A stretch of DNA of 46,872 nucleotides from Planctomycetales bacterium (GCA_037445915.1 JBBIJQ010000008.1:1-46872), one strand, 5' to 3'; positions 23,514-43,011 are shown, counted from the stretch's first letter. Program-made: numbers and translations. The notes: a model not told the origin generated them from the sequence alone.

Positions 23514-23547
23514 TACAGTATCCCTCCAGAATTTCCTTTCGTTAGTC

Positions 23548-24219
23548 CTACTTTATTTCGCAAGCGACGCACGGTTGCATGTAGCACATCATGTCGTCGA
23601 ATTGTTCCTTCTCAACGCACGGAGGCGTAAGGTTTGCGCACCCGCCGCATATCACCTTTTCGGGGTCGGAGTAGGTGCAGCGCAGCTGGCATGCGGGGCA
23701 GACATATATGCACCCGCCGCAAAGCCGGCAAACCTCCGACTTGATGTCAAAGGGAGTGCCCAGCGCCCGCTTCTCGCCGCGCGCGCTGAAGCCGATGGCC
23801 TTCGCCACCATTTGTTCTTCGCACATGCGCACGCAAAGCCCACAGAGGATGCAGTCCTCATGCTCCTGGCGGAAGCGCTGCTGCATGATTTGGTGCGCCG
23901 AGGCGAGGTCTTGGATGACCTTGCTCTGCGGACAGCTAGCCAGTAGCAGTTCTAGCACCATCTTGCGCGCGCGCAAGACGCGGTTGGTTGCGGTGCGCAC
24001 CTTTATGCCTTCCTCGGCCGGGTAGGTGCAGGATGAAACAAGCTTCGCGCGCGTCCCTTCTCCGATTTCCACCACGCAAAGCCTGCATGCGCCGTATGGC
24101 GAAAGGCCTTCCATGTGGCAAAGCGTGGGGATGGGGAAGCCCAGGAACTGCGCGGCTTCAAGTATCGTCGTGCCTTTCTCAACGCTCACTTGAAGGCCGT
24201 TTATCGTCAGGGTAATCAT
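23548..24219 (-). CDS. 2Fe-2S plus poly-4Fe-4S ferredoxin-like protein (NuoG/HydA N-terminal type)
   Basis: MITLTINGLQVSVEKGTTILEAA...CHMEGLSPYGACRLCVVEI (Fer2_4 type), then CILCGLCVRMC and CRLCGGCIYVCP clusters plus a Cys-rich tail. The ATG at 24219 overlaps the upstream stop (ATGA) and follows GAGGTG. Confidence 0.8.
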   Translation of the reverse strand: MITLTINGLQVSVEKGTTILEAAQFLGFPIPTLCHMEGLSPYGACRLCVVEIGEGTRAKLVSSCTYPAEEGIKVRTATNRVLRARKMVLELLLASCPQSKVIQDLASAHQIMQQRFRQEHEDCILCGLCVRMCEEQMVAKAIGFSARGEKRALGTPFDIKSEVCRLCGGCIYVCPACQLRCTYSDPEKVICGGCANLTPPCVEKEQFDDMMCYMQPCVACEIK

Positions 24220-27401: not shown

Positions 27402-27435
27402 AGCGGGAGCAGGAAGTTCTTGGGATTGGCAGCGC

Positions 27436-28894: not shown

Positions 28895-29560
28895 TCAGGG
28901 ATCCAAGCAGGTCAACCCTTCGCGGATTGCATACTTTGTTAGCTCGGCAACGCTCCGTAACTCAAGCTTGTCCTTTATCCTGCGCCGGTGCGCCTCAATA
29001 GTCTTCACGCACACGCCGAAAACTTGTGCGATATCTTTTGTGCTCCTGCCTTCCGCAAGCAGGCGGAGCACCTCGCGCTCCCGTTCGGTGAGTAAGCAGG
29101 GTGACGGTGCCTGGGCAGGTGACAGGTGGCGGACATAGCTTTCAACGACTGTGTCGGCAATGCCCGGGCTGAAGAAGGTTAGGTTCGCACCCACTGCGCG
29201 GATGGCGCGCGCGAGATCTTCTTGCGCGCAGTCTTTAAGTAGGTACCCCGTCGCGCCGGCGCGTAGCATCTCCATAACATACTGCCCGTCAGCGTGCATT
29301 GAAAGCCCCACTACGCGGGTTGAGGGTATCTCTGTGCGAATCTGCCTTGTCGCCTGAATCCCATTCAAGCGCGGCATCCCGATGTCCATTACTACAACAT
29401 CAGGCTTCATCTCCAGCGCGATTTGGACTGCCATCTGCCCGTCAGCAGCTTCGCCGATAACGAGCATGTCCGGTTGGAGGTTAATGAGCGTGCGCAAGCC
29501 GTCGCGGAGGATCTTGTGGTCATCCACTACTACAACGCCGATTGTTGGGCCATCTTGCAT
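28895..29560 (-). CDS. NarL/FixJ-type response regulator (REC + LuxR HTH)
   Basis: REC domain (VVVDDH...VVVMDIGMP..., phospho-Asp context) and a C-terminal LTEREREVLRLLAEGRSTKDIA...VKTIEAHRRRI LuxR-type HTH. Confidence 0.9.
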   Translation of the reverse strand: MQDGPTIGVVVVDDHKILRDGLRTLINLQPDMLVIGEAADGQMAVQIALEMKPDVVVMDIGMPRLNGIQATRQIRTEIPSTRVVGLSMHADGQYVMEMLRAGATGYLLKDCAQEDLARAIRAVGANLTFFSPGIADTVVESYVRHLSPAQAPSPCLLTEREREVLRLLAEGRSTKDIAQVFGVCVKTIEAHRRRIKDKLELRSVAELTKYAIREGLTCLDP

Positions 29561-29697
29561 AGGAAAAGCAGTAGTTCCAATGCGAAACCAAGCGTGCCAA
29601 ATACACCTACATTTTGCCGCCGTTGGTGAGTTTGCGCAATCAGGAATTCCCTTACAGGGAATGCAAGGCGCGCCGGGCGCGCATGGGAAATTGGAAC

Positions 29698-31530
29698 TCA
29701 GGAATCCAGCCCGGTCAGCCCTTCGCGGATTGCGTACTTAGTTAGCTCCGCAACGCTGTGGATTCCCAGTTTCTCCATTATGTGCTGGCGGTGGGTCTCC
29801 ACAGTCTTCACGCTTATTTGAAGGTGCAGCGCGATTTCTTTCGTGTTCCGCCCTTCGGTAAGCATTTGCAGCACTTCGCGCTCGCGATTGGTTAGCGATG
29901 ATGTGGTAGAGGTGCTGTCGCCTTGCTGGCGGGCAAAATCCTCAACGACAGCGTCTGCGATGCCTGGGCTGAGGAATGTCAGGTTCGCGTCAACCGTCCT
30001 AATGGCCCGGGCAAGGTCTTCCTGCGCGCAGTCCTTGAGCAGATATCCTGAAGCGCCTGCCCGCAGCATCTCAAGGACGAACTGCCCATCGGAATGCATA
30101 GAAAGCGCGACAACCTTTACGCCCTGTATCTTGCCTACAATCTGCCGCGTTGCCTCAATGCCATTTAGCCCTCTCATAGCGATATCCATGACGACAACAT
30201 CTGGGGTCAGCTCGCGCGAAAGCTGAATAGCCTCGCGGCCGTCGCGCGCCTCAGCAACGACATCCATGTCTGCGTGCTTTTCCAACAACGCGCGCAGCCC
30301 TTCGCGCGTTATCTGCTGGTCGTCTGCAAGCAGTATCCTCACTTTCCGAACTGAACCGTTTTCGTTCTGCGCATGCTCGGCGCGAAGGCCTCCCGCAAGT
30401 TGTGCCTCCTCCAACATCAGCGGCGCGGCCAGAGTGATACTCGTCCCATGCCCGAACTCGGAGAGTATCTCTAGCTTGCCGCCAAGGTGGTTCAAGCGCT
30501 CGCTGATGCTAAAAAGCCCGAAGCCGCCGGCCTTGTTTCGGCGAGCGCGGACTTCTGAAAAGTCAAATCCAACGCCGTCGTCTTCTACAACAATCTTTAT
30601 CTGCTCCCCAGCGCGCTTCACAAACACTTCAACCTTCTTCGCCTGAGCGTGTTTGATGATATTCGCTAGAAGCTCGCGCACTGCCTGAAAGAGCACGATG
30701 CGCGTGTCCTCGGCCAGAGGTTTGGGCCGCCTGTCCATGGTCAACTCAGCATTGATGCCGTGATCTTCTGCGAGCTGATTAACAAGCCACTCCAACGCCG
30801 ATTCAAAACCTAGCTCGTGGAGAACGGGAGGGCTTAGCTCAAACGTAAGCGAGCGCGCATCTTGAATCGTCTGGTCCATCAGGCTGAGCACTTCATCCAA
30901 GCCGCATTCTGAGCAGTTTTCCCTCAATCCCGCAAGCTTCACTTTGGCGATAGCAAGGCCGTGCCCGATTCGGTCATGCAGATCAACGGCGATTCGGCGC
31001 CGTTCGCGCTCTTCCGTAAGCGCCAGTTCCGAAGCAAGGGATCGCAACTTCGCCTGGTATTCCAAGACTTTGGCGTCAGCGCGCTCGTGTTCCACTATCC
31101 GCCCGACTCGTTCGGCAATGGCTTCAAGCAGCCTTCGCTCTTCGTGCAGGAATGGGGGCTCTGCAACCCCTGGCTTCACTTTCAGGTAACACACTTCAGC
31201 CATGCCTATATGCTGCCCGGACGCGAATATCTCAACAGCCTGCTTCCACTTTGTCTCGCGGAAGTTCGCTGTCTGGTATGACTTGCCTTCAAGCACGATG
31301 CGGGCGCAGGTGATATCCGGGTATTGGTAGCTGGGCGGTATTAAGTTTACAACGCCGCGTATCACAGTATCCAGGGATGCGTCTTTCTGATCGCGTATGT
31401 TGGCTATGGCATAAAGGCAATTAAGTTCCTTGATGCGCTCATTTAGCTCGTGCATCTTTAAGCGAAGCTTTTCCTCAGTGGACGGCCTTGGACGGCCCTT
31501 CGGTTCCTTGTTTTCCTTCTTTGTAGCCAT
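29698..31530 (-). CDS. hybrid one-polypeptide two-component protein: sensor module, HisKA_3 kinase, HATPase, REC and LuxR HTH
   Basis: H-box RRRIAVDLHDRIGHGL, the ATPase G-boxes VEDDGVGFD and GGFGLFSISER, then REC (ILLADDQ...VVVMDIAM) and LTNREREVLQMLTEGRNTKEIA...VKTVETHRQHI. Confidence 0.88.
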   Translation of the reverse strand: MATKKENKEPKGRPRPSTEEKLRLKMHELNERIKELNCLYAIANIRDQKDASLDTVIRGVVNLIPPSYQYPDITCARIVLEGKSYQTANFRETKWKQAVEIFASGQHIGMAEVCYLKVKPGVAEPPFLHEERRLLEAIAERVGRIVEHERADAKVLEYQAKLRSLASELALTEERERRRIAVDLHDRIGHGLAIAKVKLAGLRENCSECGLDEVLSLMDQTIQDARSLTFELSPPVLHELGFESALEWLVNQLAEDHGINAELTMDRRPKPLAEDTRIVLFQAVRELLANIIKHAQAKKVEVFVKRAGEQIKIVVEDDGVGFDFSEVRARRNKAGGFGLFSISERLNHLGGKLEILSEFGHGTSITLAAPLMLEEAQLAGGLRAEHAQNENGSVRKVRILLADDQQITREGLRALLEKHADMDVVAEARDGREAIQLSRELTPDVVVMDIAMRGLNGIEATRQIVGKIQGVKVVALSMHSDGQFVLEMLRAGASGYLLKDCAQEDLARAIRTVDANLTFLSPGIADAVVEDFARQQGDSTSTTSSLTNREREVLQMLTEGRNTKEIALHLQISVKTVETHRQHIMEKLGIHSVAELTKYAIREGLTGLDS

Positions 31531-31556: not shown

Positions 31557-32918
31557 CTACCCCTGCCCATTCCCAACAAACGCTTTTACCTCGGCAATGC
31601 TGATGCCAAGGGCTTTGGCAGCCATTTCGTAATCCCTATCAAAGTAATCCAGGACTTTCGTGACGTGTTCGCGCTCAATATCCTCAAGGCTGCGCGGCTT
31701 GAAGCCTGAATCATGCTGCGCGACGCCTGATGCAGCGTCCCTAATGTGCTGAGGAAGCGAGTCAGCAGTGATGGTGCCGCCGCTCTCGCTCACAACCGCG
31801 CTGGCGATAATGTTGCGCATCTCCTGCCGGTTGCCGGGAAAGCTGTAGGCTTTGAGAGTTTCAATGAACCCGGGGTCAACGCCGACAAGGCTGATACCGG
31901 CCTTTGCGGCTTCCTTCTCCAGGTAATACGCTGCAAGCAGCGGGATGTCTTCAACGCGGTCGCGAAGCGGCGGAAGCTGCAGCGAGTTGACCATCAAGTG
32001 GTAAAGCAAGTCGCGCGAAAAAGTGTAGCGGTAATCCTCGCTGGTGAGGTCGTGCCGCGAGGCGGCGATAATCCGCACGTCCAGCTTGAGTATTTGCGTG
32101 GAACACTCGCGGTAGAACTCGCCTGTTTGGATAAACCGCTTGAGGCGCACCTGTACCGGCAGCGTGAGCCGGTCAATCTCGTCAAGGAACAGTGTTCCGC
32201 CGGAAGCCTGTTCCAAGAATCCCGGCTGGTCTTCCCGGGAGCCGCTATAGTCGCGCGCCTGCCCGAAGATGGCTGCGGCGAGCTGCTCGCTATTAATCGC
32301 GGCGGCGTCAACCGCGACGAATGGCTCATTGCTGCGCGGGCTGGCGTCATGTATAGCGTGGGCAAGCATCTCCTTGCCGGTTCCGCGCTCACCCCAGATA
32401 AAGATGTCCAAGTCGCCTGCCGCCATTTTCTCCGCCTTGTGCAGTATGCGAATGAGTTCAGGGTCCTGCGTCGGGAAGTGCACAAACGCCTCGGCGAACT
32501 CCAGGTCTTCGCGCGACAGCCCCGCCGGCATCTGGCTGATGGTGTGGTGCGTGGTTTGGTGCGCGATGGCGCTGGCGAAGACTTCAAGCAAATAGCTGTC
32601 GTCTACCGGCTTCGTCAGATAGTCAAACGCGCCAAGCTTCATTGCCTTAACAGCAAGGTCAACATCACTCACGCCGGTAAGGACGATAACCGGCGTGGAA
32701 ATGCGCCGGTCCTTAACCAACTTGAGCACGTCCATTCCGCTGATGTTGGGCATGTCCATGTCAAGGAGCAGCGCGTCAAAATGTTCCCGCTCCAGCAGTT
32801 CCGAAATAGCCCGCGAGTCGTTTACAACTGTCGGTTCGTACTTGCCCGTCTGCATCAGGAAGACCATCAGGTAGTTGGTCACCGCAACATCGTCGTCAGC
32901 AATCAATACTTTTCGCAT
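31557..32918 (-). CDS. NtrC-family response regulator (REC, AAA+ sigma-54-interaction-type domain, Fis-type HTH) with a degenerate GAFTGA loop
   Basis: MRKVLIADDD...LLLDMDMP (REC), Walker A GERGTGKE and Walker B TLFLDEID. RDYSGS (nt 32238-32255) sits where GAFTGA is expected. C-terminal HTH MAAKALGISIAEV. The track start at 32933 is a GTG, and I prefer the ATG at 32918. Confidence 0.88.
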   Translation of the reverse strand: MRKVLIADDDVAVTNYLMVFLMQTGKYEPTVVNDSRAISELLEREHFDALLLDMDMPNISGMDVLKLVKDRRISTPVIVLTGVSDVDLAVKAMKLGAFDYLTKPVDDSYLLEVFASAIAHQTTHHTISQMPAGLSREDLEFAEAFVHFPTQDPELIRILHKAEKMAAGDLDIFIWGERGTGKEMLAHAIHDASPRSNEPFVAVDAAAINSEQLAAAIFGQARDYSGSREDQPGFLEQASGGTLFLDEIDRLTLPVQVRLKRFIQTGEFYRECSTQILKLDVRIIAASRHDLTSEDYRYTFSRDLLYHLMVNSLQLPPLRDRVEDIPLLAAYYLEKEAAKAGISLVGVDPGFIETLKAYSFPGNRQEMRNIIASAVVSESGGTITADSLPQHIRDAASGVAQHDSGFKPRSLEDIEREHVTKVLDYFDRDYEMAAKALGISIAEVKAFVGNGQG

Positions 32919-32932
32919 GCCCCCAAATTCCA

Positions 32933-34957
32933 CTATGAATGCCCCCCTATCGCCGGCGTTTCAGTGTGGTCATCCTCGTCTTCAGCCGCCGCCTTCTTCT
33001 TAATCGGCAGCCTAATGAGAAAAGTCGTGCCTGCTCCCGGCTTGCTTACAATGGTTATCTTTCCGCCGTGCTCTTCAATGATGCGGTAGGCAATGGCCAG
33101 CCCTAGGCCCGTGCCGCCCTTCGCGCGGCGCGTAGTAAAGAACGGCTCAAAGATGTGCTTCAGCGTCTCTTCCGTCATCCCTTTGCCGTTGTCTGAGACT
33201 TCAATTGAAAGCGTTGAGTTCTCAGCGCGCGTCTTCACCCGGACAAGCCCTCGCCTGTCGTCAGGCATAGCCTGGCCCGCGTTAATTAGCAAATTGATGA
33301 GGACCTGTTCCAGCTTCTGCGAGTTGCCGGTAAAGCTCGGGACATCCGGCGCGAGGTCAAGCTCAATGTCTGCGTTTTTGTGCACCTGGTTGTGGACTAG
33401 GCGCGCGCTGGCGTCAACGATTGTGTTGATATCCACAGTGTCAATGAGCAATCCCTCGTCCCGGCGGGCGAAACGCTTCAGCCCCTCCACGATTCCCTTG
33501 ATGCGCTCGGAGCCGTGTCCCATGTCGTTGACGAGGGTTCCGACATGCTCGCGGAAAAATCCGTAGTGCAGTCGCGCAATCTTCAGGTCGGGATGTTCCT
33601 TGTAGTATTCGTCCAATATGGGGATGATGTCCTCAAGGGCCTGCTTTATTATCTTGATGTTCCCGCGTATGAACTGGTTCGGGTTGTTGATCTCATGCCC
33701 GATGCCGCTAACGAGCTGTCCCAGCGAGGCTAGTTTGTCCGCCTGTTGGAGCTGCTGCTCGTAAGTCTTCTCCATCGTTATGTCGCGGTAGAACTCAATA
33801 ATACCTTCAACTTCATGCTTCTGGTTGAAAATAGGGAGGGCATGCACTTCGAAGTAGCTGTCCTCATGCTTAATCTCAAGCGTGATCGGGGCTTTCTCGC
33901 GGACGACACGCATAAGGCGGCAGTCCGGGCACGGCGTTTCCGAGTTGAAGACAGTGCGGTAGCACTTGTCGCCCGGCAGGACGGTCTCGCGGTTGGTCAT
34001 CACCACATTGCGCTTCAGGTCTATCAGCGCGACGCGGTCGGGTATCGCCTGAAACATCGTTTCCAGGCGCACCTTTGATTCCTCCCAGTCATGCTGGACG
34101 CGCGCAATGTATTCGTTAACGCGTTCCAGCTTCACGCGCTGGTCGTCAAGCTCCTTGGTGCGGTTCTCAATAACTGTTTCCAGTTCCGCAAGTTTGCGCC
34201 TGTACTCCGCTTCCTCTTCCTGCTTAAGTGCCAGGCGCTCGGTAAGCTCTTTGCGCTCCAGCGCGAGGCTAAGCATGCGCGCGATCTCGTTGAGCATCCT
34301 TTGCTCTTCGGGCAGCAGCTCAAATTCCTCGCTTATGTAGCCCACGCGCAGTTCGCCTGCAACCTGCCCGCTTACCTCAAGAACAGCGCGGATGATGTCT
34401 TCTGAAGCAGGCTTCTGGCCGTACTCAACGCCCTGGTAAAGTGAATAAATTACTGCGTGTTCGGGGTAGTGCATTCCCCGGCTGAGGTAAGTTGGAAGCT
34501 CGGTAAAAAACTCCTTGATTGAGACGGATGTATCAATCCAGTCTGCAACCGCATAAACGCAGGAAAGCTCTTTGATGCGCTCAATCTTTTCCCACTCTGA
34601 GAGCATGCTCAAGCCTTCTGCCTGCACGCCGTAGAAGAGGAATAGCCCGCCCTCTTCGTCTTCAGCATAGCCGACTTTAAGGGGAATTACCCGTGAGTTG
34701 CCGCCCTTCACGGAAAAGCCAACGGTGCCCTTGCGCCCCTTTCGGACTTCAACCATTGCCAAGCGGAAACCCTCAAGAGACTCCGGCGTTAGAATGTCTT
34801 CCAGGCGGCGCTTGACAACCGATTTTTGGCTTAGCCCGGATTCACTAATGAGTAGTCGGCTTGCGTGACTTACCCTCCCCTCGCGGTCGGCCACGAGCAG
34901 GTATTCAAAGCTGCTTTCAAACAAGTTAAAGAGGTATTCCAGCCTAATGGCTCCCAC
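32933..34957 (-). CDS. sensor histidine kinase (PAS/GAF-type sensor modules, HisKA, HATPase)
   Basis: H-box LVSGIGHEINNPNQFI, N/G boxes NLLINAGQA, DNGKGM and GGTGLGLAIAYRI, and a Cys motif CYRTVFNSETPCPDCRL in a PAS-like module. GTG start. Confidence 0.9.
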   Translation of the reverse strand: MGAIRLEYLFNLFESSFEYLLVADREGRVSHASRLLISESGLSQKSVVKRRLEDILTPESLEGFRLAMVEVRKGRKGTVGFSVKGGNSRVIPLKVGYAEDEEGGLFLFYGVQAEGLSMLSEWEKIERIKELSCVYAVADWIDTSVSIKEFFTELPTYLSRGMHYPEHAVIYSLYQGVEYGQKPASEDIIRAVLEVSGQVAGELRVGYISEEFELLPEEQRMLNEIARMLSLALERKELTERLALKQEEEAEYRRKLAELETVIENRTKELDDQRVKLERVNEYIARVQHDWEESKVRLETMFQAIPDRVALIDLKRNVVMTNRETVLPGDKCYRTVFNSETPCPDCRLMRVVREKAPITLEIKHEDSYFEVHALPIFNQKHEVEGIIEFYRDITMEKTYEQQLQQADKLASLGQLVSGIGHEINNPNQFIRGNIKIIKQALEDIIPILDEYYKEHPDLKIARLHYGFFREHVGTLVNDMGHGSERIKGIVEGLKRFARRDEGLLIDTVDINTIVDASARLVHNQVHKNADIELDLAPDVPSFTGNSQKLEQVLINLLINAGQAMPDDRRGLVRVKTRAENSTLSIEVSDNGKGMTEETLKHIFEPFFTTRRAKGGTGLGLAIAYRIIEEHGGKITIVSKPGAGTTFLIRLPIKKKAAAEDEDDHTETPAIGGHS

Positions 34958-35031
34958 CTCCTTCCGCCTCTGGCGGCTGGCTTACAAGGCGGCAAACCTC
35001 ATGTCCATAATACTCGCGGCGACTTGCGTCG

Positions 35032-38000
35032 TTACAGCACACGAAATCTTTCCTCGCCGACTTCGCGGAGGCTGCGCTTGTAGCGCTCGCATTCCGTCAT
35101 CGCCGGCGCGATGGGCGTTGGCGCGGTCTTCACGTCCGCGACTTGCAGCTTTCCTTTGCCGTCCCAGGAATGCGGCTCGCCCTCATTCCAGTAGAACGCA
35201 AAGCGCTCGCCTGTATTGTCCCGCACGAGCAGCCTCAGCTCCGATGTGGCTTCGGCAAGCGTGCCGGGAACGCGCAGCCCCAACGCAGCCGCAAGCCTTG
35301 CCAGCACTTCCCATCCTTGCACGCCCGAAGGCGGGTTTACGGCTTTGGTGAATCGGGCCGAGCGCCCCTCATAGTTGAAGCGCGTGCCTTCCGACTCCAG
35401 GTATGTCGTTCCGGGCAAGGCGATATCGGCAAGCAGCGCCGTTTCCGTCTGCGCCCAATCCATTGCAACAGTAAACTCAACATTGGCGAAGTACGAGGAG
35501 AAGCGGTCGCTCTGCATCGGGTCTTCGCCTATGATGAGCGCAGCCTTAACGCATCCGCTGGTGAGCTTATACATAAGCTCGCTGCGGCTGTGCGCGCCGG
35601 GTAGCCCAGGCGCGCCTTTGCGCCCGGGCGCGAAGCGCGGGTCTGCGCCCGAAAGCTCAATGCCCGCCCCGTTAGCAGTCTGGTGCGGCAACAGGATATC
35701 AGCCTGAACGCCCGCTGCGCCAAGCAGAATGGCCAGGTTGGCAAGCGTAACCATCCCTCCGGGCGACTGGTCCTGCGGGCGGTCAGGGCTATGCACGATG
35801 GCGACGCGCTTTGCCGCCCGGATGAGATCGGTGGCGGCGGTTATCTCCTTCTCGTTAACTCCGGTTACGGCAGCAGTTGCCTGCAAGCCATAGTCGCGCA
35901 TGTCGGCAAGGAACTCCGTGCCGCCTGGTAGTTTCTTCACAGCGCCATGGCTGATGAAGCCGCTGTCCAGCATCGCCTGCAAGACGCCGTTCCAGAGCAG
36001 CCCAGAGCGTCCGCGCATCGGGTCAAGCGTTACCGCGGCGAGAGCTTCAAGCGCGTCGCGGCTGGAGCTGCAAGTGATAAGCTTCGCGCCTCGCCTAACC
36101 GCTTCCATTATCTCTACGCCAAGGATGAGCTGATCGGATACTGTATCGGTATTGTCGCAGATTATTAGGTCAGCGAGCTTTACAGCGCGGCTGCCGGCGG
36201 TTGATGCGGTGAAACCCAGCGATGCGTCAAGAACGCCGCTTTCAACGCCGCTAGCCAGCATTGCCAGCGAGCCAATGTTCGCGGTGCCCAGCCCTTCGCG
36301 GGCGATGCGCGCGGCAAGGAACATCTCTTCGGCGGTTAGCTCCGGCGAGGCGAATACGGCGACTGCGTCCGCACCGTGCTTCTCAGCGGCCTTCTTGAGG
36401 AAGCGTGCGGCCTTTTCAATCCCTTCTGCGGCCTCAAGCTTCAGGTGCGTCCCGCCTGAACGTTGCATTGCCTTTTCAAGCCTTTGCTGCTTGAGGAATA
36501 GTTCAATGCCAAAGCGCCCGTAACGGCAAAGGTACTCGCCCGGCGCGCCTGATGACGAAACCCAGTAACATCCTTCGCCCAGCGTGTGCAGCGTCATCGT
36601 GCACCCCACCGAGCATAGCCCGCAGCTTGTCTTCGCAAGGTCGGCGAGCAGCGGTGAGCGCCCGGGGAACGGGTATTTGTCGGTGAGAGCGCCGGTAGGG
36701 CAGCTGTCAATGCAGTTCCCGCAGCTGATGCAGTTCGTCTGCGCGAGAGAGTCATTCATCGCCGGGCGCATCTCAGTCCTGAATCCGCGCCCAACCAAGC
36801 CGATCGCGGAAATTGGCAAAACGATAGCGCAGGTTCTTATGCAGCGCGTGCAGAGGATGCACTTGTTCGGGTCGTAGGAAACGTGCGGGTGGCGGTTGTC
36901 CACGCGGTGCTTGCGCACGTATCCCGCAAACCGCGTCATGTCCACGCCGTACTCGTCGGAGTACAGCCGCAGCGGGCAGTCATAATACCGCACGCAGCCG
37001 CAAGAAAGGCATCGGTCGCACTCGTGCGCTACGTCTTCGTGCTCGTAGCCAAGCGAGACTTCTTTGAAGCTGCCTTCGCGCTCTACAACAGGGATTTCGT
37101 GGATTTCATGGCGCGGGCTTTCCTTCACATCGCCGATATCAGCCTGGCCGGGCTTGCCCCAGAAGTCCTTGCGTACTATAAATGGCTCATGGGGCATCTG
37201 CTCGCCGCTCAGGTAGCTGTGGATAGCGTAAGCGGCGCGCTGGCCGTCACGGACAGCATCAATCACAACCGTAGGGCCGTCGTCCGCAGCGTCGCCGCCG
37301 GAGAACACGCCGTCAATGCTGGTCTTCATCGTGTTGTTGTCCACGACGATGGTTTTCCAGCGGGTAATCGCGGGTAAATCTTCGCCTCCCGCGATTCCAT
37401 CCAGCACCGGCTCCTGCCCGATTGCGGAGACTGCGATATCGCAAGGCAGCTCAAATTCCGAGCCTTCAATGGGAACAGGCCGCCTGCGCCCGGACGCGTC
37501 CGGCTCGCCGAGCTTCATCAGGATGCAGCGCAGTGCTTTGAGCTTCCCGTTCTCGCTGACAATGCCCACCGGCGCCGCAAGCTCAAGTATCTTTATGCCT
37601 TCTTTGAGGCAGTCTTCAATCTCCATTTTGTCGGCGGGCATCTCCGCCTTGGTGCGGCGGTAGAGGATGATGACCTTCTCCGCGCCCAATCGCCAGGATG
37701 TGCGCGCCACATCCATCGCGGTATTGCCGCCGCCTACGACTACAATGGTGCCTGCTAGCGGAGTGTGGTCTTCAGTCTTCTCGCGCAGGAACTCCGCGCC
37801 GCGCGTGATGCCTTCGGTCTCGTTCTCGCCCTCAACCATCATCTCTTTCCCGGCCATCGCGCCTACGGCGATGAACACGGCGCTATGCCGCTTGCGTAGC
37901 TCTTCCAGGCTCACGTCCTTGCCCACGCGCACGCCAAGCTCAATGCGCACGCCTGCGCGAAGGATGTATTCAACTTCACGGTCAAGCACGTCATCGGGCA

Positions 38001-38718
38001 GTCGGTAGGTTGGGATGCCATATCGCAGCATTCCGCCGGTGCGGGGGAGGGCTTCGTAAATCACCGGGTCGTAGCCCATCTTGCCGAGGAACCAGGCCGC
38101 AGTCAGCCCGGCAGGGCCGCTTCCGATTATTCCTACGCTTTTCCCGCGAGAAGGCTGGCGCTCCACTAAGCCGTCGTATGCGCCGGGGAAGTCGGTAACG
38201 TAACGCTTGATGTTATTGATGCCCACAGGCTCGTCAACTTCCACCCGCTGGCAGACGACTTCGCACTTGCGCACGCAAACGCGGCCGCATATGGCAGGCA
38301 AGGGGTTTGTCTCGCGCACAAGGTCAGCGGCTTCGCGGTATAGCCCCATCGCAGCTAATGCGATATAGCCCTGCGCGTCCACGCCTGCAGGGCATCCCAG
38401 CTTGCACGGCGATAGGCAGTCCGCGTAGTGGTTGGAGAGCAGCAGCTCAAGAGCTGTTTTGCGGGAGGTCTTCACGCGCTCGTTATGCGTCTCAATCTTC
38501 ATTCCCTGCGCGATGCGGGTTGCGCACGCTGGCACGAGGTTGGGCCGCCCGGCCACTTCTACGACGCAAAGGAAGCACGAGCCGTAAGGCTTCAGCTCCG
38601 GCGAATGGCACAACGTGGGGATGTCGGCGAGCTTATGCTCCTGAACGGCCTGGAGTATCGTCTTGCCGGCGGGGGCGCTTATCTCCTGGCCGTTTATCTC
38701 AATGGTTACAGTATCCAT
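35032..38718 (-). CDS. 1228-aa triple fusion: 2Fe-2S ferredoxin, GltD/NfnB-like FAD/NAD(P)H module, then NuoG/FdhA-like Fe-S and molybdopterin-fold domain without an active-site Cys/Sec
   Basis: CHSPELKPYGSCFLCVVEV (2Fe-2S). GltD clusters CLSPCKLGCPAG...ICGRVCVRKCEVVC with VGIIGSGPAGLTAAWFL and IVVVGGGNTAMDVA. HECDRCLSCGC, CILCTRCIRTC and CISCGNCIDSCP, then the Molybdop_Fe4S4-like CGLCSVGC...LCRYGRFG. The C-terminal roughly 520 aa have a NuoG-like ending (...AVNPPSGVQGWEVLARLAAALG). Confidence 0.85.
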   Translation of the reverse strand: MDTVTIEINGQEISAPAGKTILQAVQEHKLADIPTLCHSPELKPYGSCFLCVVEVAGRPNLVPACATRIAQGMKIETHNERVKTSRKTALELLLSNHYADCLSPCKLGCPAGVDAQGYIALAAMGLYREAADLVRETNPLPAICGRVCVRKCEVVCQRVEVDEPVGINNIKRYVTDFPGAYDGLVERQPSRGKSVGIIGSGPAGLTAAWFLGKMGYDPVIYEALPRTGGMLRYGIPTYRLPDDVLDREVEYILRAGVRIELGVRVGKDVSLEELRKRHSAVFIAVGAMAGKEMMVEGENETEGITRGAEFLREKTEDHTPLAGTIVVVGGGNTAMDVARTSWRLGAEKVIILYRRTKAEMPADKMEIEDCLKEGIKILELAAPVGIVSENGKLKALRCILMKLGEPDASGRRRPVPIEGSEFELPCDIAVSAIGQEPVLDGIAGGEDLPAITRWKTIVVDNNTMKTSIDGVFSGGDAADDGPTVVIDAVRDGQRAAYAIHSYLSGEQMPHEPFIVRKDFWGKPGQADIGDVKESPRHEIHEIPVVEREGSFKEVSLGYEHEDVAHECDRCLSCGCVRYYDCPLRLYSDEYGVDMTRFAGYVRKHRVDNRHPHVSYDPNKCILCTRCIRTCAIVLPISAIGLVGRGFRTEMRPAMNDSLAQTNCISCGNCIDSCPTGALTDKYPFPGRSPLLADLAKTSCGLCSVGCTMTLHTLGEGCYWVSSSGAPGEYLCRYGRFGIELFLKQQRLEKAMQRSGGTHLKLEAAEGIEKAARFLKKAAEKHGADAVAVFASPELTAEEMFLAARIAREGLGTANIGSLAMLASGVESGVLDASLGFTASTAGSRAVKLADLIICDNTDTVSDQLILGVEIMEAVRRGAKLITCSSSRDALEALAAVTLDPMRGRSGLLWNGVLQAMLDSGFISHGAVKKLPGGTEFLADMRDYGLQATAAVTGVNEKEITAATDLIRAAKRVAIVHSPDRPQDQSPGGMVTLANLAILLGAAGVQADILLPHQTANGAGIELSGADPRFAPGRKGAPGLPGAHSRSELMYKLTSGCVKAALIIGEDPMQSDRFSSYFANVEFTVAMDWAQTETALLADIALPGTTYLESEGTRFNYEGRSARFTKAVNPPSGVQGWEVLARLAAALGLRVPGTLAEATSELRLLVRDNTGERFAFYWNEGEPHSWDGKGKLQVADVKTAPTPIAPAMTECERYKRSLREVGEERFRVL

Positions 38719-38727
38719 CAGTATTCC

Positions 38728-40500
38728 TTAGCCTTTGAAAACCGCGTCAAAGTTGCAGCACGTGATGCACTTGCCGCACTTTGCGCAGAGAGCCATGTCA
38801 ATAGTGTGGAGTTCTTTCGCCTTGCCTGCGATGGCGTCCACCGGGCAGTTCTTCGCACAGATGGTGCAGCCGGTGCACTTCTCCGGGTCAATGAAGTAGC
38901 TCACGAGAGTGGCGCAGCTCTTCGCGGGGCACTTGCGCTCGTTAATGTGCGCTTCGTATTCGTCTAGGTAGTAGCGCACCGTTGTAAGCACCGGGTTGGG
39001 CGCGGTCTGGCCAAGCCCGCACAGACTCGCTTCCTTGATCTGCTCCGCGAGCAGCTTGAGCTTCGGGATATCCTCCGGCGTGCCCTCGCCGCGCGTGATG
39101 CGCTCCAACACTTCAAGCATGCGCAGCGTCCCGATGCGGCAGAATGTGCACTTTCCGCAGGATTCGTCTTGCGTGAAGTTGAGGAAGAAACGCGCGATCT
39201 CCACCATGCACGTCGTGTCGTCCATAACGACCATGCCGCCGCTTCCCATAATCGCGCCGGTCGCGGGGATGTTTTCAAAATCAACCGGTGTGTCGCCTAG
39301 CGCGGCGGGGATGCAGCCGCCGGACGGACCTCCCATCTGCACGGCCTTGAACTTGCGGCCTTTGGAGATGCCGCCGCCGATTTTAAAGACGAGGTCATTG
39401 ATGGTCATCCCCATCGGCACTTCTGCAAGGCCGCCGTGCTCCACCTGACCGGCCAGGGCGAAGACTTTGGTGCCGGGGGATTTCTCGGTGCCAAAGGAGG
39501 TGAACGCCTTCGCGCCGTTCACGAGTATCCACGGAATGTTGGCGTAGGTCTCAACGTTGTTGTTGTTCGTCGGCTTCTGCCACAAGCCTTTCTCGGCCGG
39601 AAACGGCGGGCGAATGCGGGGCATCCCGCGCTCGCCTTCAATGGAGGCAAACAGCGCAGTTTCCTCTCCGCACACGAATGCGCCTGCACCCTGCTTGATC
39701 TTCACGTCAAAGGCGAAGCCTGAGCCCATTATGTCCTTGCCGAGATAACCTTTCTCGCGTGCCGCGATAATTGCGATGTTCAGGCGCTTGATGGCGAGCG
39801 GGTATTCCGCGCGGCAGTATATGTAGCCGTAAGTCGCGCCGATTGCGCGCGCGCAGATTATCATGCCCTCAAGGACCGAATGCGGGTCGCCTTCCAGCAC
39901 CGAGCGGTCCATAAACGCGCCCGGGTCGCCTTCGTCAGCGTTGCACACGACATATTTCTCGTCGCTGGGATAGCCCGCCGCGAATGACCATTTCATCCCC
40001 GTGGGGAATCCCGCGCCGCCGCGCCCGCGCAGCCCTGAAGCCTTCACCTCGCCGATGATTTCCTCGGGCTTCATTTCAAAGAGCGCTTTGCGCAGCGCAT
40101 CGTATCCGCCAGCGGCCTCGTATTCATCAACCGACTCAGGGTCAATGACGCCGCAGTTGCGCAACACGATGCGGTTTTGCAGCGCGAGGAAGCCCGCCTC
40201 CACGCCGCTGCATTCGCCCTTGCCGTCCTCGCGGTAAACGATGTAGCCGGGGATGGCTTCGCCGCCGATGAAATGCTTCTTATAGATTTCCTCGGCGCGC
40301 TCCGGCGTGACGTCGCCGTAGAGGATGCGCGCCCCGTTCTCGCGCACTTCCACCAGCGGCTCGCGGTAGCACATGCCGATGCAGCCGGTAATGGCAGGCT
40401 CGCTGCCGCTTCCTGCGGCGAGTTCCTTTAGTTTTTCAAATGTGTCTCGGGCTCCTGCGGAAAGCCCGCAGGTGCCCATTCCAACGAGTATCTTACGCAT
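38728..40500 (-). CDS. NuoF/HydB-like NADH-FMN subunit with an N-terminal Trx-like 2Fe-2S and a C-terminal 2x[4Fe-4S] domain
   Basis: GMGTCGLSAG...GCIGMCYREP, GLRGRGGAGFPTGMKW, CNADEGDPGAFMDR, ESCGKCTFCR...CGLGQT, CTGCTICAKNCP and CAKCGKCITCC. I prefer the ATG at 40500, after GGAG, over the TTG at 40503. Confidence 0.9.
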   Translation of the reverse strand: MRKILVGMGTCGLSAGARDTFEKLKELAAGSGSEPAITGCIGMCYREPLVEVRENGARILYGDVTPERAEEIYKKHFIGGEAIPGYIVYREDGKGECSGVEAGFLALQNRIVLRNCGVIDPESVDEYEAAGGYDALRKALFEMKPEEIIGEVKASGLRGRGGAGFPTGMKWSFAAGYPSDEKYVVCNADEGDPGAFMDRSVLEGDPHSVLEGMIICARAIGATYGYIYCRAEYPLAIKRLNIAIIAAREKGYLGKDIMGSGFAFDVKIKQGAGAFVCGEETALFASIEGERGMPRIRPPFPAEKGLWQKPTNNNNVETYANIPWILVNGAKAFTSFGTEKSPGTKVFALAGQVEHGGLAEVPMGMTINDLVFKIGGGISKGRKFKAVQMGGPSGGCIPAALGDTPVDFENIPATGAIMGSGGMVVMDDTTCMVEIARFFLNFTQDESCGKCTFCRIGTLRMLEVLERITRGEGTPEDIPKLKLLAEQIKEASLCGLGQTAPNPVLTTVRYYLDEYEAHINERKCPAKSCATLVSYFIDPEKCTGCTICAKNCPVDAIAGKAKELHTIDMALCAKCGKCITCCNFDAVFKG

Positions 40501-40544
40501 CAATCATCTCCGAAGAAGAGTAGGAGCGCATCATTGCGCAGGCG

Positions 40545-41039
40545 CTAGCCCGCGACCCCCGCTTCCGTGGGCTTCTTTGCCTTGCGGCGCACCCCGCGCA
40601 GAATCTTGCGCACCGCCGCGGGCGACAGCTTCCCATGCGTGTCTTCGTCAATCATTATCACCGGCGAAAGCGAGCAGCAGCCGATGCAGGCGACGGTGAA
40701 CAGCGTGAACAGCCCGTCTTCGCTTGTGCCTCCGACTTCAATCGCCAGCTCGTCTTGGATGGTTTCCACGATGAGCCGCGCACCGTTGACATGGCATGCA
40801 GTCCCGACGCAGGCGCGGATAACGTGCTTACCCATCGGCTGGAGGCGGAATTGGCTGTAGAATGTGATAACGCCGTAAACGGCGGATTCGGGTATGTTCG
40901 TCACCGCCGAGATATATTTGATGGCACGGCGTGGAATGTATCCGAAGTAGTTCTGCGCCGACTGGAGCAACGGTATCAGCTCGCCGGGAGCGCCGTCGTA
41001 GCGCCAGAGCCTGTAGTTGAAATCAGGTTCGTTCGTCAT
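40545..41039 (-). CDS. NuoE/HydC-like 2Fe-2S subunit
   Basis: LIPLLQSAQNYFGYIP...VITFYSQFRLQPMGKHVIRACVGTACHVNG...VACIGCCSLSPV carries the four conserved Cys. Confidence 0.9.
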   Translation of the reverse strand: MTNEPDFNYRLWRYDGAPGELIPLLQSAQNYFGYIPRRAIKYISAVTNIPESAVYGVITFYSQFRLQPMGKHVIRACVGTACHVNGARLIVETIQDELAIEVGGTSEDGLFTLFTVACIGCCSLSPVIMIDEDTHGKLSPAAVRKILRGVRRKAKKPTEAGVAG

Positions 41040-41105
41040 CGGCTTGTCTCCGAGTAGCGTTGCCCGTTCTCGGGCGGCATTACTCCATTACTCCCACGGT
41101 TAGCG

Positions 41106-42098
41106 TTAAGCATCCATCAACCGGATAATCTTTGCCTCGCGCACCCGCAACACGCCGTCAATCTTGTTGAGCTTTTCAATGACGCGGGGCATCTTGCCGA
41201 CTGCGCCGCTCTCGGTAATCATCCCGACCAGCTTGGCGCCGTCGTCAATGACGTCGCAGAAGATGACCTCGTCCACAAAAAACACGGTCGTGAATATCTG
41301 CTGTATCGCGCTCTTGTCAATGTCAACGATGATGTAGCTCGTCGTGCCGATGCTTTCCTTCATCAGCTTGGGCGACGGGCCGCGCACTGTGCGCTGGTAG
41401 ATGTCAATGAAGTCCTTCACGTCGCGGTCTAGCTTCGGGCGCTCAACCGGCGACATGGAAACGACCTCAATCCCCTTTATCATGCGCACTTCGTTAAACA
41501 GCTTGTTGATGTGCTCCTGCGAAGCCGCTTGCGCAAGGATGATGATGTCAACGTCGCCTCGCACGGCGTCGCACTGCACTATGCCGTCAAGGTGGAAGAG
41601 CTTGTTGTAAATCTCAAGGCTCTGGTCGGGGTCGGTCACGCGGATGGTCATGTAAGCCGTTACCGACTCGCGCATGGCTGGCTCGCCGGGCGCATCGGGT
41701 GTCGTGGGGCTAAGAGTGCTCGATCCTTCGGCAAGCTCGTTTAACGCGGCGACAAGCTCCGGTATCTCAAATGGCTTGTCCAGGTATCCGGTGTTATGCT
41801 CGCCGAGCGCGGTGGTCTTCAGGAACTCGTCGCCGAAGCCCGTGATGACTAAGACCGGCAGGTCGGGGAACTCGCTCTTGATGACCTTAAGTATCTTGAG
41901 GCCGTCAATGTCGGGCATGAAAATGTCGGTGATGAGGTAGTCGTAGCCGAGGCCCTTGGCGCGCGCGGCGCTCAGCTCGTGGATAGCTGAAAGCCCGTCC
42001 GGGCAGGCAGTGCAGGTGTAGCCCTCCTGGGTCAGGCCGAAAGTAAGATTGCGGCGTATCTCAGGCTCGTCGTCAATGATAAGAACCCTCTTGCTCAA
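41106..42098 (-). CDS. response regulator receiver fused to two Lrp/AsnC-type ligand-binding (RAM) domains, with no DNA-binding domain seen
   Basis: REC: KRVLIIDDEPEIR...YLITDIFMPDIDGL...DKP. Then two AsnC_trans_reg-like repeats, AYMTIRV...LDGIVQCDAVRGDVDIIIL...IKGIEVVS and SYIIVDI...VDEVIFCDVIDDGAKLVGMI...IDGVLRVRE. TTG start 6 nt after AAGGAGG. Confidence 0.75.
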   Translation of the reverse strand: MSKRVLIIDDEPEIRRNLTFGLTQEGYTCTACPDGLSAIHELSAARAKGLGYDYLITDIFMPDIDGLKILKVIKSEFPDLPVLVITGFGDEFLKTTALGEHNTGYLDKPFEIPELVAALNELAEGSSTLSPTTPDAPGEPAMRESVTAYMTIRVTDPDQSLEIYNKLFHLDGIVQCDAVRGDVDIIILAQAASQEHINKLFNEVRMIKGIEVVSMSPVERPKLDRDVKDFIDIYQRTVRGPSPKLMKESIGTTSYIIVDIDKSAIQQIFTTVFFVDEVIFCDVIDDGAKLVGMITESGAVGKMPRVIEKLNKIDGVLRVREAKIIRLMDA

Positions 42099-42204
42099 CG
42101 CAGGCCTCCTTGTAACGGTTGCGTTTCGTTAAAGAACTCAGGTATTGGCGCATGGCGGTTTCAGCGCGCGATTGCGCGTAATTCGTGAATGGAAACACAA
42201 GCCG

Positions 42205-42232
42205 ATTCTACCACAGCCCTGATTAGCGTCAA
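42205..42232 (-). promoter_or_regulatory. sigma-70-type promoter TTGACG-16-TAGAAT for the upper redox operon
   Basis: On the minus strand, TTGACG (42232-42227), a 16-nt spacer and TAGAAT (42210-42205), about 100 nt upstream of the REC-RAM gene. Confidence 0.5.
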
Positions 42233-42296
42233 GCTTCGCGCGTGCTAGAATGGCAGTCAGGTTTCGGCTTAACCCTGCGCCGTTCCCGCCTTGTTT

Positions 42297-42369
42297 GCGC
42301 CCGTAGCTTAACGGATAGAGCAGCGGACTTCGGATCCGCCGGTTGGGGGTTCGAATCCCTCCGGGCGCG
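42297..42369 (+). tRNA. tRNA-Arg (anticodon UCG)
   Basis: Hand-folded cloverleaf. Acceptor GCGCCCG pairs with CGGGCGC. D-arm is GCTT-AACGGATA-GAGC. Anticodon stem GCGGA/TCCGC carries loop CT-TCG-GA. There is a 5-nt variable loop, and the T-arm is GGGGG-TTCGAAT-CCCTC. Discriminator G, and CCA is not encoded. Confidence 0.9.
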
Positions 42370-42386
42370 AGCTTCTTCTGGATAGT

Positions 42387-42435
42387 GGCACATGCGTCCC
42401 GCTTGTGTTATAAGCGCGCTGGCACACGCCAGCGC
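42387..42435 (-). repeat. REP unit, copy 2 (inverted orientation), on the 3-prime side of the RAYT gene
   Basis: GGCACATGCGTCCCGCTTGTG (42387-42407) is the reverse complement of the copy-1 core. An 8-bp hairpin, GCGCTGGC-acac-GCCAGCGC, is at 42416-42435. Confidence 0.8.
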
Positions 42436-42468
42436 TACCTCAATTCCTGTCGGGTTCTGGATATGGTC

Positions 42469-43011
42469 TTATCTTGGTGGCACGGGCGTCTCGCCTGTGC
42501 GTGTAGTTGTTATTCCTTTAACCCACAGGAATGGGTATTCTTTCGCTTCAGGCCACCGTTCTTGGGGATTGTTGTAGATATAGACTATCTTTTCATTCAG
42601 CTCGTCTTCATCCCTGATTATCCGGTCGTAGGACTCATCCATCCATACCGGCCCCTTTCGGTTCATGCGCTTGTTTATCTCATGCGCCGTGAAAGACTTC
42701 CAGCTATGAACTAGCTTGTGCAGCGGCCAATCAGGATACGGTTTCAAGACGGCATGGACGTGGTCGTCCATCACTACGCAAGCAATAAGGTCGTATCGTT
42801 CTCCATTAAAATGCAGGAACGCATTGAAGGATATCTCCCTTGCGTCATCGGGAAGCGGAGCTATTGAATCGTGCGCCCGCCAAATGACAAAGTAGGTGGA
42901 CTCGTCCAGCCGGAAATGCGGCAGGTTTCTGCGGTATCGCGTGAATTCCCTTACCATGTTCAAACTTGAGGAGTATAGGATAAAGCAGCGCGTAATTGAA
43001 CCGGTTTCCAA
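42469..43011 (-). CDS. REP-associated tyrosine transposase (RAYT; IS200/IS605-like Y1 HUH transposase)
   Basis: HUH motif VMDDHVHAVL, catalytic-Tyr helix ...EKIVYIYNNP, and N-terminal RRNLPHF. The size fits Y1_Tnp. The start is uncertain, either TTG at 43011 or ATG at 42957. Confidence 0.85.
   Translation of the reverse strand: METGSITRCFILYSSSLNMVREFTRYRRNLPHFRLDESTYFVIWRAHDSIAPLPDDAREISFNAFLHFNGERYDLIACVVMDDHVHAVLKPYPDWPLHKLVHSWKSFTAHEINKRMNRKGPVWMDESYDRIIRDEDELNEKIVYIYNNPQERWPEAKEYPFLWVKGITTTRTGETPVPPR

Follow-up and report, generated by a model that had tools for sequence, protein, structure and literature searches.

The electron-bifurcating transhydrogenases of the StnABC / NfnABC type (Nfn-Bfu) are the closest described relatives of the system dealt with here, and their architecture, including a vestigial formate dehydrogenase (FDH)-like domain, has already been purified, assayed and solved by cryo-electron microscopy. 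The large subunit StnC was described as a GltD-like NADPH-binding module fused to a NuoG domain, and its FdhF domain was found to be catalytically inactive, whereby the two clusters of this domain were identified as an electron-transfer remnant that lies off the pathway (Kumar et al. 2023, PMC10482914) and is needed for tetramer assembly (PMC10482914). Formate oxidation was tested with the Stn enzyme, and no formate:methyl viologen activity was found (Kremp et al. 2020, PMC7483475). For NfnA from Caldicellulosiruptor saccharolyticus (Csac) the pterin site was reported to be incomplete and pterin density to be absent (Li et al. 2025, PMC11829005), and the same transhydrogenase reaction was demonstrated for the archaeal Nfn-Bfu enzyme from T. 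sibiricus (PMC9304861, PMC12018979). Here, a three-gene operon is described that resides on a stretch of 46,872 nucleotides from a Planctomycetales bacterium (GCA_037445915.1 JBBIJQ010000008.1:1-46872; the whole stretch is referred to as the window). Its genes encode a NuoE-like protein of 164 amino acids (aa), a NuoF-like protein of 590 aa and a large subunit of 1228 aa, and very probably they specify an electron-bifurcating transhydrogenase of the StnABC / NfnABC (Nfn-Bfu) type. An original prediction, made from the window alone, had implied that the fusion of such an enzyme with a dead molybdopterin domain was novel; as the architecture is published for the StnABC/NfnABC family, the system itself is known, and what is new here is a sister subfamily in which the FDH-like domain is longer and devoid of the active-site loop deletions of StnC/NfnA, one cysteine has changed its place (Ala115/Cys144) and regulator genes are conserved on the flanks.

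Family Assignment of the Three Subunits

Searches against the PDB returned for each of the three subunits chains of the entries 8oh5, 9bov and 9n5u as the top three matches, ahead of hydrogenase, FDH and complex I homologues. For the large subunit these were 9bov_A (E=1.5e-234), 8oh5_C (1.5e-208) and 9n5u_A (2.8e-171), and because of these best matches it corresponds to StnC in the Stn naming and to NfnA (BfuA) in the Bfu naming, not to StnA. The comparison with StnA-type proteins that had been suggested earlier hence led to the right family, as all subunits possess Stn kinship, but named the wrong subunit. The 164-aa protein was identified as a 2Fe-2S_thioredx protein (PF01257, E=1.6e-47) with Cys77, Cys82, Cys118 and Cys122, and its best matches were NfnC (9n5u_C, 2.5e-50), 9bov_C (1.1e-44) and StnA (8oh5_A, 1.8e-44). 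The 590-aa protein comprises the Pfam domains Complex1_51K and NADH_4Fe-4S followed by a C-terminal Fer4 dicluster, and matched StnB best (8oh5_B, E=1.6e-253), followed by 9n5u_B (1.2e-248) and 9bov_B.

The NuoF-like subunit shares 64% identity with StnB, and each StnB cysteine within the aligned region has a cysteine counterpart. Next to the predicted FMN/NADH site, a B1 [4Fe-4S] cluster is expected at C448/451/454/494 and a metal site at C11/40/44/116 of the N-terminal thioredoxin-like domain, the latter four residues all being aligned with cysteines of S. ovata StnB. A Zn-type site is predicted at H518/C524/C529, whereby H518 aligns with StnB H512, and the C-terminal B3 and B4 [4Fe-4S] clusters are assigned to C542-552 and C572-582. 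The earlier claim of a bifurcation-type NuoF with extra N- and C-terminal Fe-S domains was thus well founded, and the BfuB/BfuC core is complete, as it includes B1, the N-terminal site, the Zn-type site with three Cys and one His, B3/B4 and the [2Fe-2S] cluster of the C-subunit.

For the large subunit, Pfam revealed Fer2_4 (3-79), Fer4_20 (101-177), Pyr_redox_2 (194-492) and Fer4_Nqo3 (611-679), followed by a weak Molybdop_Fe4S4 match (696-738) and Molybdopterin (770-1143), an architecture which agrees with the published description of StnC (PMC10482914) and which documents that a Molybdop_Fe4S4-like motif is followed by molybdopterin-fold sequence, as had been proposed. All motifs quoted before were recovered by translation, these being GSGPAG at residues 199-204 (FAD fold), GGGNTA at 329-334 (NADPH fold), CGLCSVGC at 699-706, LCRYG at 730-734 and GTANIGSLAMLASGVESG at 811-828. 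The NADPH-type GGGNTA...YRRT motif is common to the large subunit and StnC/NfnA in the alignments of the PDB matches, and the GltD module matched the NfnB/GltD structures of the PDB with E-values of 1e-72 to 1e-90. Over about 820 aa, identity to StnC/NfnA amounts to 42-44%, StnC and Csac NfnA being 58% identical to each other; the value of 42-44% falls within the range of 31-49% for which homologues were listed as "potential StnC" (Kremp et al., PMC7483475).

Insertion of the GltD module into a NuoG-like scaffold, as put forward in the original prediction, is confirmed by the Pfam domain order, but the placement of the His-ligated cluster behind the insertion is not. Of the NuoG-type His motif only H97-x3-C101 is left, ahead of the GltD module, and Pfam NADH-G_4Fe-4S_3 matches residues 86-103 only. 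Past the insertion, the first cluster motif consists of cysteines exclusively (C570/C573/C575/C581), with an invariant Glu566 occupying the position that is expected for the His by NuoG spacing. As H97-x3-C101 precedes the module and the all-Cys motif follows it, the GltD module is located inside the old His-cluster motif.

Iron-Sulfur Ligands of the Large Subunit

Conservation was assessed in an alignment of the window protein with its best 120 database homologues (121 sequences). For StnC and NfnA, the N-terminal ~840-880 residues were rebuilt from HMMER alignments, and the last ~300 residues were compared through HMMER and Foldseek output only. All 27 Fe-S cysteines of the large subunit are invariant in the 121 sequences, and every cluster cysteine except C144 aligns with a cysteine of StnC/NfnA. 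Together with H97 and K171, the 27 cysteines make up ligand sets for one [2Fe-2S] and six [4Fe-4S] clusters. C37/48/51/65 of the [2Fe-2S] domain align with C36/47/50/64 of StnC/NfnA, and the ligands of the ferredoxin-like 2x[4Fe-4S] domain (C620/623/626/630 and C663/666/669/673) are likewise kept as cysteines there. Within the GltD module, H97, C101, C105, C109, C144, C148, C152, C156 and K171 are the ligand candidates.

Among these, the Lys-ligated cluster deserves closer consideration. In Csac NfnA the FAD-proximal A7 cluster is ligated by C108/C147/C151/K170 (PMC11829005), which is equivalent to C109/C148/C152/K171 in the window protein, and StnC K170 was reported to be strictly conserved, its mutation abolishing activity (PMC10482914). 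Both K171 and R239, the latter at the FAD site, are invariant throughout the 121 sequences; their counterparts in StnC are K170 and R239. The StnC C114A variant was found to keep 50% activity, and Cys114 is not strictly conserved among StnC homologues (PMC10482914). At this position the window protein possesses Ala115 (38374-38376), with Ala in 90 and Cys in 10 of the 121 sequences, and a further cysteine, Cys144 (38287-38289), is invariant in the clade, where StnC and NfnA have Ile143. Ten sequences possess cysteines at both positions 115 and 144. From the alignment, Cys144 is possibly a relocated ligand or a second-sphere residue, and either H97 or C144 may complete the second GltD cluster.

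Proposed Mechanism and Alternative Reactions

The mechanism suggested for the window enzyme is inferred from the solved homologues, and the same applies to its activity, its cofactors, its oligomeric state and the direction in which it works in vivo. Initially, NADPH would reduce the FAD of the GltD/NfnL-like module in the 1228-aa subunit. Next, electrons would travel singly from the Lys-ligated [4Fe-4S] cluster (C109/C148/C152/K171) to the second cluster of the GltD module, onward over the NuoG-type clusters and finally over the [2Fe-2S] cluster, to arrive at the [4Fe-4S] cluster that adjoins the FMN in the 590-aa subunit. Here, the FMN and the adjacent clusters of the 590-aa and 164-aa subunits would split the electron pairs, whereby NAD+ is expected to be reduced at high potential and ferredoxin at low potential, the site for ferredoxin being the 2x[4Fe-4S] domain at the C-terminus of the 590-aa subunit. 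For the bifurcating site itself two descriptions exist, of which one invokes a conformational gate like that of HydABC (PMC10482914) and the other a "flavobicluster" of B1-FMN-C1 (PMC11829005). The FDH-like domain would be an evolutionary remnant which, by analogy to StnC, serves as a dead-end Fe-S branch and as oligomerization scaffold. As the reaction should be reversible, formation of NADPH from NADH and reduced ferredoxin would be possible in vivo. An NADH/NADPH/ferredoxin enzyme on an FDH or NuoG chassis without FDH catalysis had also been proposed by the original prediction, and the StnABC/NfnABC best matches, the missing FDH residues and domain IV, and the published homologues all agree with this.

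Several points weigh against this assignment. The window protein belongs to a sister clade that is just 42-44% identical to the characterized enzymes, all of which lie outside of it, and none of the NCBIfam models reaches its curated cutoff with the large subunit. Because Cys114 is exchanged for Ala115 and an extra invariant Cys144 is present, the surroundings of the FAD-proximal clusters may differ from those of StnC. A residual ligand-binding role of the FDH-like domain is conceivable as well, since this domain is longer than its counterparts, FDH-like by score and keeps the catalytic Arg in 68 of the 121 sequences. Finally, Nso from T. litoralis was, as cited in PMC7483475, first described as an NAD(P)H-dependent sulfur/oxygen reductase.

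On these grounds it may be asked whether the same wiring serves another physiological reaction, i.e., that of a non-bifurcating NAD(P)H oxidoreductase, of an enzyme with another acceptor such as sulfur/polysulfide or oxygen (as first reported for Nso), of one that employs flavodoxin, or of one with a partner that docks on the FDH-like domain. The distinct subfamily with its altered ligand set near the FAD-proximal clusters (A115, C144), the FDH-like domain, which is better preserved than in StnC/NfnA, the clade-specific conserved regulators, which suggest a specialized role, and the Nso precedent would all be in line with such a function. It is considered unlikely, however, as all features linked to bifurcation in Bfu enzymes are present, namely the ferredoxin-like B3/B4 domain, both the N-terminal and the Zn site in the B subunit, and the [2Fe-2S] cluster of the C subunit, and K171 and R239 are invariant. 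Also the precedent is weakened, since according to Kremp et al. Nso, too, is probably a transhydrogenase of the Stn type (PMC7483475).

The FDH-Like Domain: Lost Active Site, Retained Fold

The C-terminal domain of the large subunit was compared with genuine FDHs, whereby E. coli FdhH was taken from MG1655. In the direct alignment, FdhH Sec140 is replaced by Ala822, His141 by Ser823, Arg333 by His1012 and Lys44 by Tyr733, and HMMER alignments with HDCR FdhF and with FdsA of R. capsulatus gave the same equivalences. In FdhH, Lys44 lies between the [4Fe-4S] cluster and the pterin. The four cluster ligands of FdhH (C8/C11/C15/C42) align with C699/C702/C706/C731, and hence the [4Fe-4S] site is retained. 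In the 121 relatives, column 822 drifts between G, A, E, L, S and C; in column 823 the six commonest residues, T, S, A, G, V and N, account for 117 sequences, His not being among them; and column 1012 is Arg in 68 sequences (56%), with Y, S, H, C or G in the remainder. The absence of the active-site Cys, Sec and His, as previously noted, is thereby confirmed, and the reading frame holds no internal stop and consequently no in-frame TGA. Molydop_binding (PF01568) gave zero matches in the large subunit up to E<=10, and the protein ends opposite FdhH residue ~590 of 715; for these two reasons the pterin-capping domain IV is missing, which is in accord with the earlier observation that the C-terminal barrel seemed absent.

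The fold as such is maintained. The AlphaFold2 model of residues 690-1228 (pLDDT 93.5) was searched with Foldseek, which ranked Csac NfnA first (9bov_A, TMq 0.79), further matches being FDHs (0.78-0.83), StnC (0.75) and NuoG (0.62-0.68). The FDH-like domain alone matched true FDHs with E-values of 1e-27 to 1e-33, and over its whole length these matches are no poorer than those to the StnC/NfnA remnant. It is ~50 aa longer than the StnC/NfnA counterpart, with a full-length loop around the former Sec/Cys-His site, and as a consequence of its match to true FDHs it looks like a less eroded remnant than the domain of StnC/NfnA. At the same time, conservation within the protein is lowest in this domain, with ~50% identity to the window protein and 4-5% invariant columns, as compared to 66-77% identity and 19-38% invariant columns in the [2Fe-2S] domain, the GltD module and the Fe-S region when the short junctions and linkers are set aside. 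Judged by these alignments, the FDH-like domain appears to be catalytically dead, with catalytic residues that evolve freely, and by analogy to the solved homologues it should be pterin-free.

That the enzyme is nonetheless a genuine NAD(P)-linked FDH, or another Mo/W-bisPGD enzyme, is suggested by the name "formate dehydrogenase major subunit" which JGI gives to many homologues, by the resemblance of residues 691-1190 to FdhF, FdsA and FdhH in sequence and fold, and by the kept [4Fe-4S] ligands. This is exceedingly improbable. The FdhH residues Sec140, His141 and Arg333 are Ala, Ser and His here and variable in the clade, Lys44 is replaced by Tyr733, domain IV and an in-frame TGA are absent, and the homologous proteins were found to lack formate activity (StnC, PMC7483475) and pterin density (Csac NfnA, PMC11829005). 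No conserved Cys/Sec-His pair emerged from the FdhH, FdsA and FdhF alignments, and with their replaced catalytic residues and the missing domain IV the assignment as genuine FDH was rejected.

Gene Organization and Flanking Regulators

The positions of the operon, of the domains within its large subunit and of the neighboring features are compiled in Table 1.

Table 1. Features of the transhydrogenase locus and its surroundings, in window coordinates.
Feature	Position	Strand	Description
NuoE/HydC-type gene (StnA / NfnC (BfuC)-like)	40545-41039	minus	164 aa; thioredoxin-like [2Fe-2S] protein
NuoF/HydB-type gene (StnB / NfnB (BfuB)-like)	ORF 38728-40503, gene 38728-40500	minus	590 aa
Large-subunit gene (StnC / NfnA (BfuA)-like)	35032-38718	minus	1228 aa; stop codon counted
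N-terminal [2Fe-2S] domain, aa 1-85	38464-38718	minus	Fer2_4; C37, C48, C51, C65
GltD/NfnL-like NADPH-oxidizing module, aa 97-510	37189-38430	minus	Fer4_20 + Pyr_redox_2; two [4Fe-4S] sites
NuoG/HydA-type Fe-S region, aa 561-690	36649-37038	minus	Fer4_Nqo3; C570/573/575/581 + 2x[4Fe-4S] ferredoxin-like domain
Vestigial FDH-like domain, aa 691-1228	35035-36648	minus	Molybdopterin E=2e-17; domains I-III, without domain IV
Ala822-Ser823 (position of the FDH Sec/Cys-His pair)	36250-36255	minus	Alignment to FdhH, HDCR FdhF, R. capsulatus FdsA
His1012 (position of the FDH catalytic Arg, FdhH Arg333)	35683-35685	minus	Alignments to FDHs
Receiver/RAM protein gene	41106-42098	minus	330 aa; Pfam Response_reg + AsnC_trans_reg (RAM/ACT-like)
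PAS histidine kinase gene	32933-34957	minus	674 aa, multi-PAS; Pfam PAS, HATPase_c
Sigma-54-dependent response regulator gene	31557-32933	minus	458 aa; Response_reg, Sigma54_activat, AAA_lid_14
Candidate sigma-70-type promoter	42205-42232	minus	TTGACG-16-TAGAAT, TG extension; 10/12 consensus matches; pattern match only
tRNA-Arg(TCG)	42296-42370	plus	Upstream boundary of the cluster
IS200-like Y1 transposase open reading frame	42469-43011	minus	Upstream boundary of the cluster

As predicted, three co-directional open reading frames (ORFs) occupy positions 35032-41039 on the minus strand, with intergenic gaps of 44 nt and then 9 nt. The 590-aa gene likely starts with the ATG at 40500, which is preceded by GGAG 8 nt to its 5' side and which matches the gene call of an independent, 99%-identical sister assembly (L081). 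Gene calls are identical in this sister assembly, where the ~1228-aa ORF is unbroken as well. The order of NuoE-like, NuoF-like and large subunit was followed across 80 related loci, which comprise an 82%-identical metagenome-assembled genome (MAG; L001) and 79 further genomes. It is kept wherever flanks are available, the NuoF-like gene being directly upstream of the large-subunit gene and the NuoE-like gene preceding it where the contig reaches. That separate GltD-like and NuoG/FDH-like genes were joined into the 1228-aa ORF erroneously, by assembly or annotation, for which only its unusual length and mosaic domain content speak, can practically be dismissed, as the same architecture occurs in the 99%-identical assembly and the 82%-identical MAG, matches in the 80 loci cover residues 1-~1227 unless the contig ends first, the best 120 database homologues measure 1221-1253 aa at 100% coverage, and homologues of 1172 aa and 1178 aa have solved structures. 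The chimeric ORF, raised before as a possible objection, was accordingly rejected given the unbroken ORF in the sister assembly and the 80 loci.

Directly upstream of the three enzyme genes lies the gene of a receiver/RAM protein, an arrangement found in 69 of the 80 loci and in many phyla. The protein is mostly 60-70% identical across loci, which is about as conserved as the enzyme subunits are. In the 330-aa protein Pfam detected no DNA-binding domain, and a PDB search matched its receiver domain only, the C-terminal 200 aa being without a solved relative by sequence. The TTG start of the gene is preceded by an AAGGAGG ribosome-binding site, and upstream of it resides the sole promoter candidate of the cluster, which is of sigma-70 type. 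The receiver/RAM gene probably is the first gene of the transcription unit. Conceivably, the encoded protein is a partner dedicated to the enzyme that acts in signalling or at the post-translational level. Downstream of the large subunit, the PAS histidine kinase gene is found in 50 of the 80 loci, mostly directly, and the sigma-54-dependent regulator comes after the kinase in 41. Because the gene of this sigma-54 activator adjoins the operon, a sigma-54 promoter (TGGCAC-N5-TTGC, <=2 mismatches) was searched for, yielding 46 matches as against 63 expected by chance and none upstream of the operon. For the minus strand from 34700 to 42500, no intrinsic terminators were predicted.

Taken with the three enzyme genes, the receiver/RAM protein, the PAS histidine kinase and the sigma-54 regulator constitute a six-gene module. 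There is a small chance that the NADPH supply is tuned by the FDH-like domain or by the receiver/RAM protein, either acting as a control point that senses a ligand or the redox state, which would make the enzyme a regulated Stn/Nfn-Bfu variant; this idea derives from the full-length loops, the Arg kept in 56% of the members, the invariant Cys144 and the conserved six-gene module.

At the upstream boundary, the transposase gene is found at the same place in the sister assembly (L081 102-590). On the far side of the sigma-54 regulator, two proteins are encoded at 28895-31530 on the minus strand, between the two redox operons, namely a hybrid kinase of 610 aa that combines HisKA_3 with receiver and LuxR/GerE domains, and a response regulator of NarL type with 221 aa, and this pair is shared only with the closest relatives, L001 and L081. 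The second of these redox operons (21894-28284, minus) is paralogous and of an architecture without solved counterpart. It encodes a 282-aa NuoE-like protein, a 1061-aa fusion, a 232-aa [2Fe-2S] + Fer4 protein resembling the N-terminus of NuoG, and a 539-aa protein with a weak Glu_synthase (GltB FMN-domain) match only, for which zero PDB sequence or NCBIfam matches were obtained. In the 1061-aa fusion, a BfuB/HydB-like part (residues 37-570) is followed by a GltD/NfnL-like module (residues 571-1043) that replaces the usual C-terminal 2x[4Fe-4S] ferredoxin domain. Among the flank-scanned loci, this operon was found within 8 kb only in L001, and it is also present in L081; it looks more unusual than the StnABC-type operon.

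Distribution and Annotation of the Subfamily

At least 7987 database proteins match the large subunit at E<=1e-50, and the best 120 of them are full length. By sequence, the window protein is placed in a sister subfamily of StnC/NfnA which is found in uncultured candidate phyla, the MAG labels being Eisenbacteria, Krumholzibacteriota, Fermentibacteria, Planctomycetota, Elusimicrobia, Verrucomicrobiota, Acidobacteria and Spirochaetales. These fall outside the groups listed in the family papers, i.e., Firmicutes, Synergistetes, Proteobacteria, Bacteroidetes and Euryarchaeota. Next to the FDH name given by JGI, many of the full-length homologues are named "FAD-dependent oxidoreductase" by NCBI, and because of such names and of the lack of an NCBIfam model at cutoff, the large-subunit family is systematically mis- or under-annotated. 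Its correct annotation is the main value of the present work. Since thousands of database homologues carry one of these two names and the large subunit is without a curated NCBIfam model, formate metabolism may be inferred wrongly, and an enzyme that balances NADH, NADPH and ferredoxin be overlooked, when the metabolism of uncultured anaerobes (Eisenbacteria, Krumholzibacteriota, Fermentibacteria, Planctomycetota, Elusimicrobia) is reconstructed. The subfamily by itself raises no new question and its specific details are modest, but it provides natural variants for two topics that are being debated in the Stn/Nfn-Bfu literature, the Cys114/Lys170 environment of the FAD-proximal cluster and the role of the dead FDH branch.

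Comparison with Known Systems

Compared with complex I NuoEFG, the window large subunit carries the GltD insertion and the NuoF-like subunit N- and C-terminal extensions, and the neighboring genes are regulators, not membrane-arm nuo genes. Among FDHs (R. capsulatus and C. necator FdsABG, E. coli FdhH, HDCR FdhF), FdsBG likewise provides NuoE/NuoF-like diaphorase partners, and both the [4Fe-4S] motif and the domain I-III fold (TMq 0.78-0.83) are shared; different from these, the window protein lacks Sec/Cys-His-Arg and domain IV and possesses the GltD insertion, whereas FdsB, like non-bifurcating NuoF, is without the extra bifurcation-type domains (N-terminal site, B3/B4) of the window NuoF-like subunit. 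NfnAB / NfnSL catalyzes the same overall reaction with a homologous GltD/NfnB-like FAD/NADPH module that holds two [4Fe-4S] clusters, and the GltD module of the window protein matches the NfnB/NfnL structures 4ylf_B and 5jca_L with E-values of ~1e-88 to 1e-90. However, no NfnA/NfnS-like small-subunit gene was found among the operon genes scanned, the proximal cluster of NfnAB / NfnSL has a Glu ligand where the window protein has Lys171, and the FAD of NfnAB / NfnSL bifurcates, whereas the GltD FAD of Stn/Nfn-Bfu was reported not to do so, bifurcation being a property of the FMN module.

Closer relations are found within the Nfn-Bfu family itself. The archaeal Nfn-Bfu from Thermococcus sibiricus (9N5U; PMC9304861, PMC12018979) is the best PDB match of the small subunit (2.5e-50), but its large subunit is, with 963 aa, ~200-265 aa shorter than the window protein, and as the alignment stops at about residue 737, most of the window FDH-like domain has no aligned counterpart. 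NfnABC from C. saccharolyticus (9BOV/9BP5; PMC11829005) is both the best PDB sequence match of the large subunit (1.5e-234) and the best structural match of the FDH-like domain (TMq 0.79), with equivalent ligands of the Lys cluster and a pterin-less, dead-end side branch in the FDH-like domain that is taken as a further likeness. It differs in its identity of ~44%, in a 5-residue deletion at the FDH Sec/Cys-His site, where the window protein retains the loop with Ala-Ser, and in the N-terminal site of NfnB, which is a Zn site with three Cys and one Glu as compared to C11, C40 and C44 plus C116 in the 590-aa subunit.

StnABC from Sporomusa ovata (8OH5/8OH9; PMC7483475, PMC10482914), the Sporomusa-type Nfn transhydrogenase, is set apart from the window system by its host, the latter being an uncultured non-Firmicute bacterium, and by its gene neighborhood, since the S. 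ovata stn genes adjoin Wood-Ljungdahl genes, whereas the window genes are flanked by the receiver/RAM protein, the PAS kinase and the sigma-54 regulator. The window large subunit is ~42% identical to StnC and 56 aa longer, possesses Ala115/Cys144 in place of Cys114/Ile143, and has a full-length FDH "active-site" loop which is shortened in StnC. Shared are the three-gene order of NuoE-like, NuoF-like and large subunit, the combination of [2Fe-2S] domain, GltD module, NuoG-type clusters and inactive FdhF-like domain, the equivalents of K170 and R239 together with the cluster cysteines, and a StnB-type subunit that is 64% identical and keeps its metal ligands.

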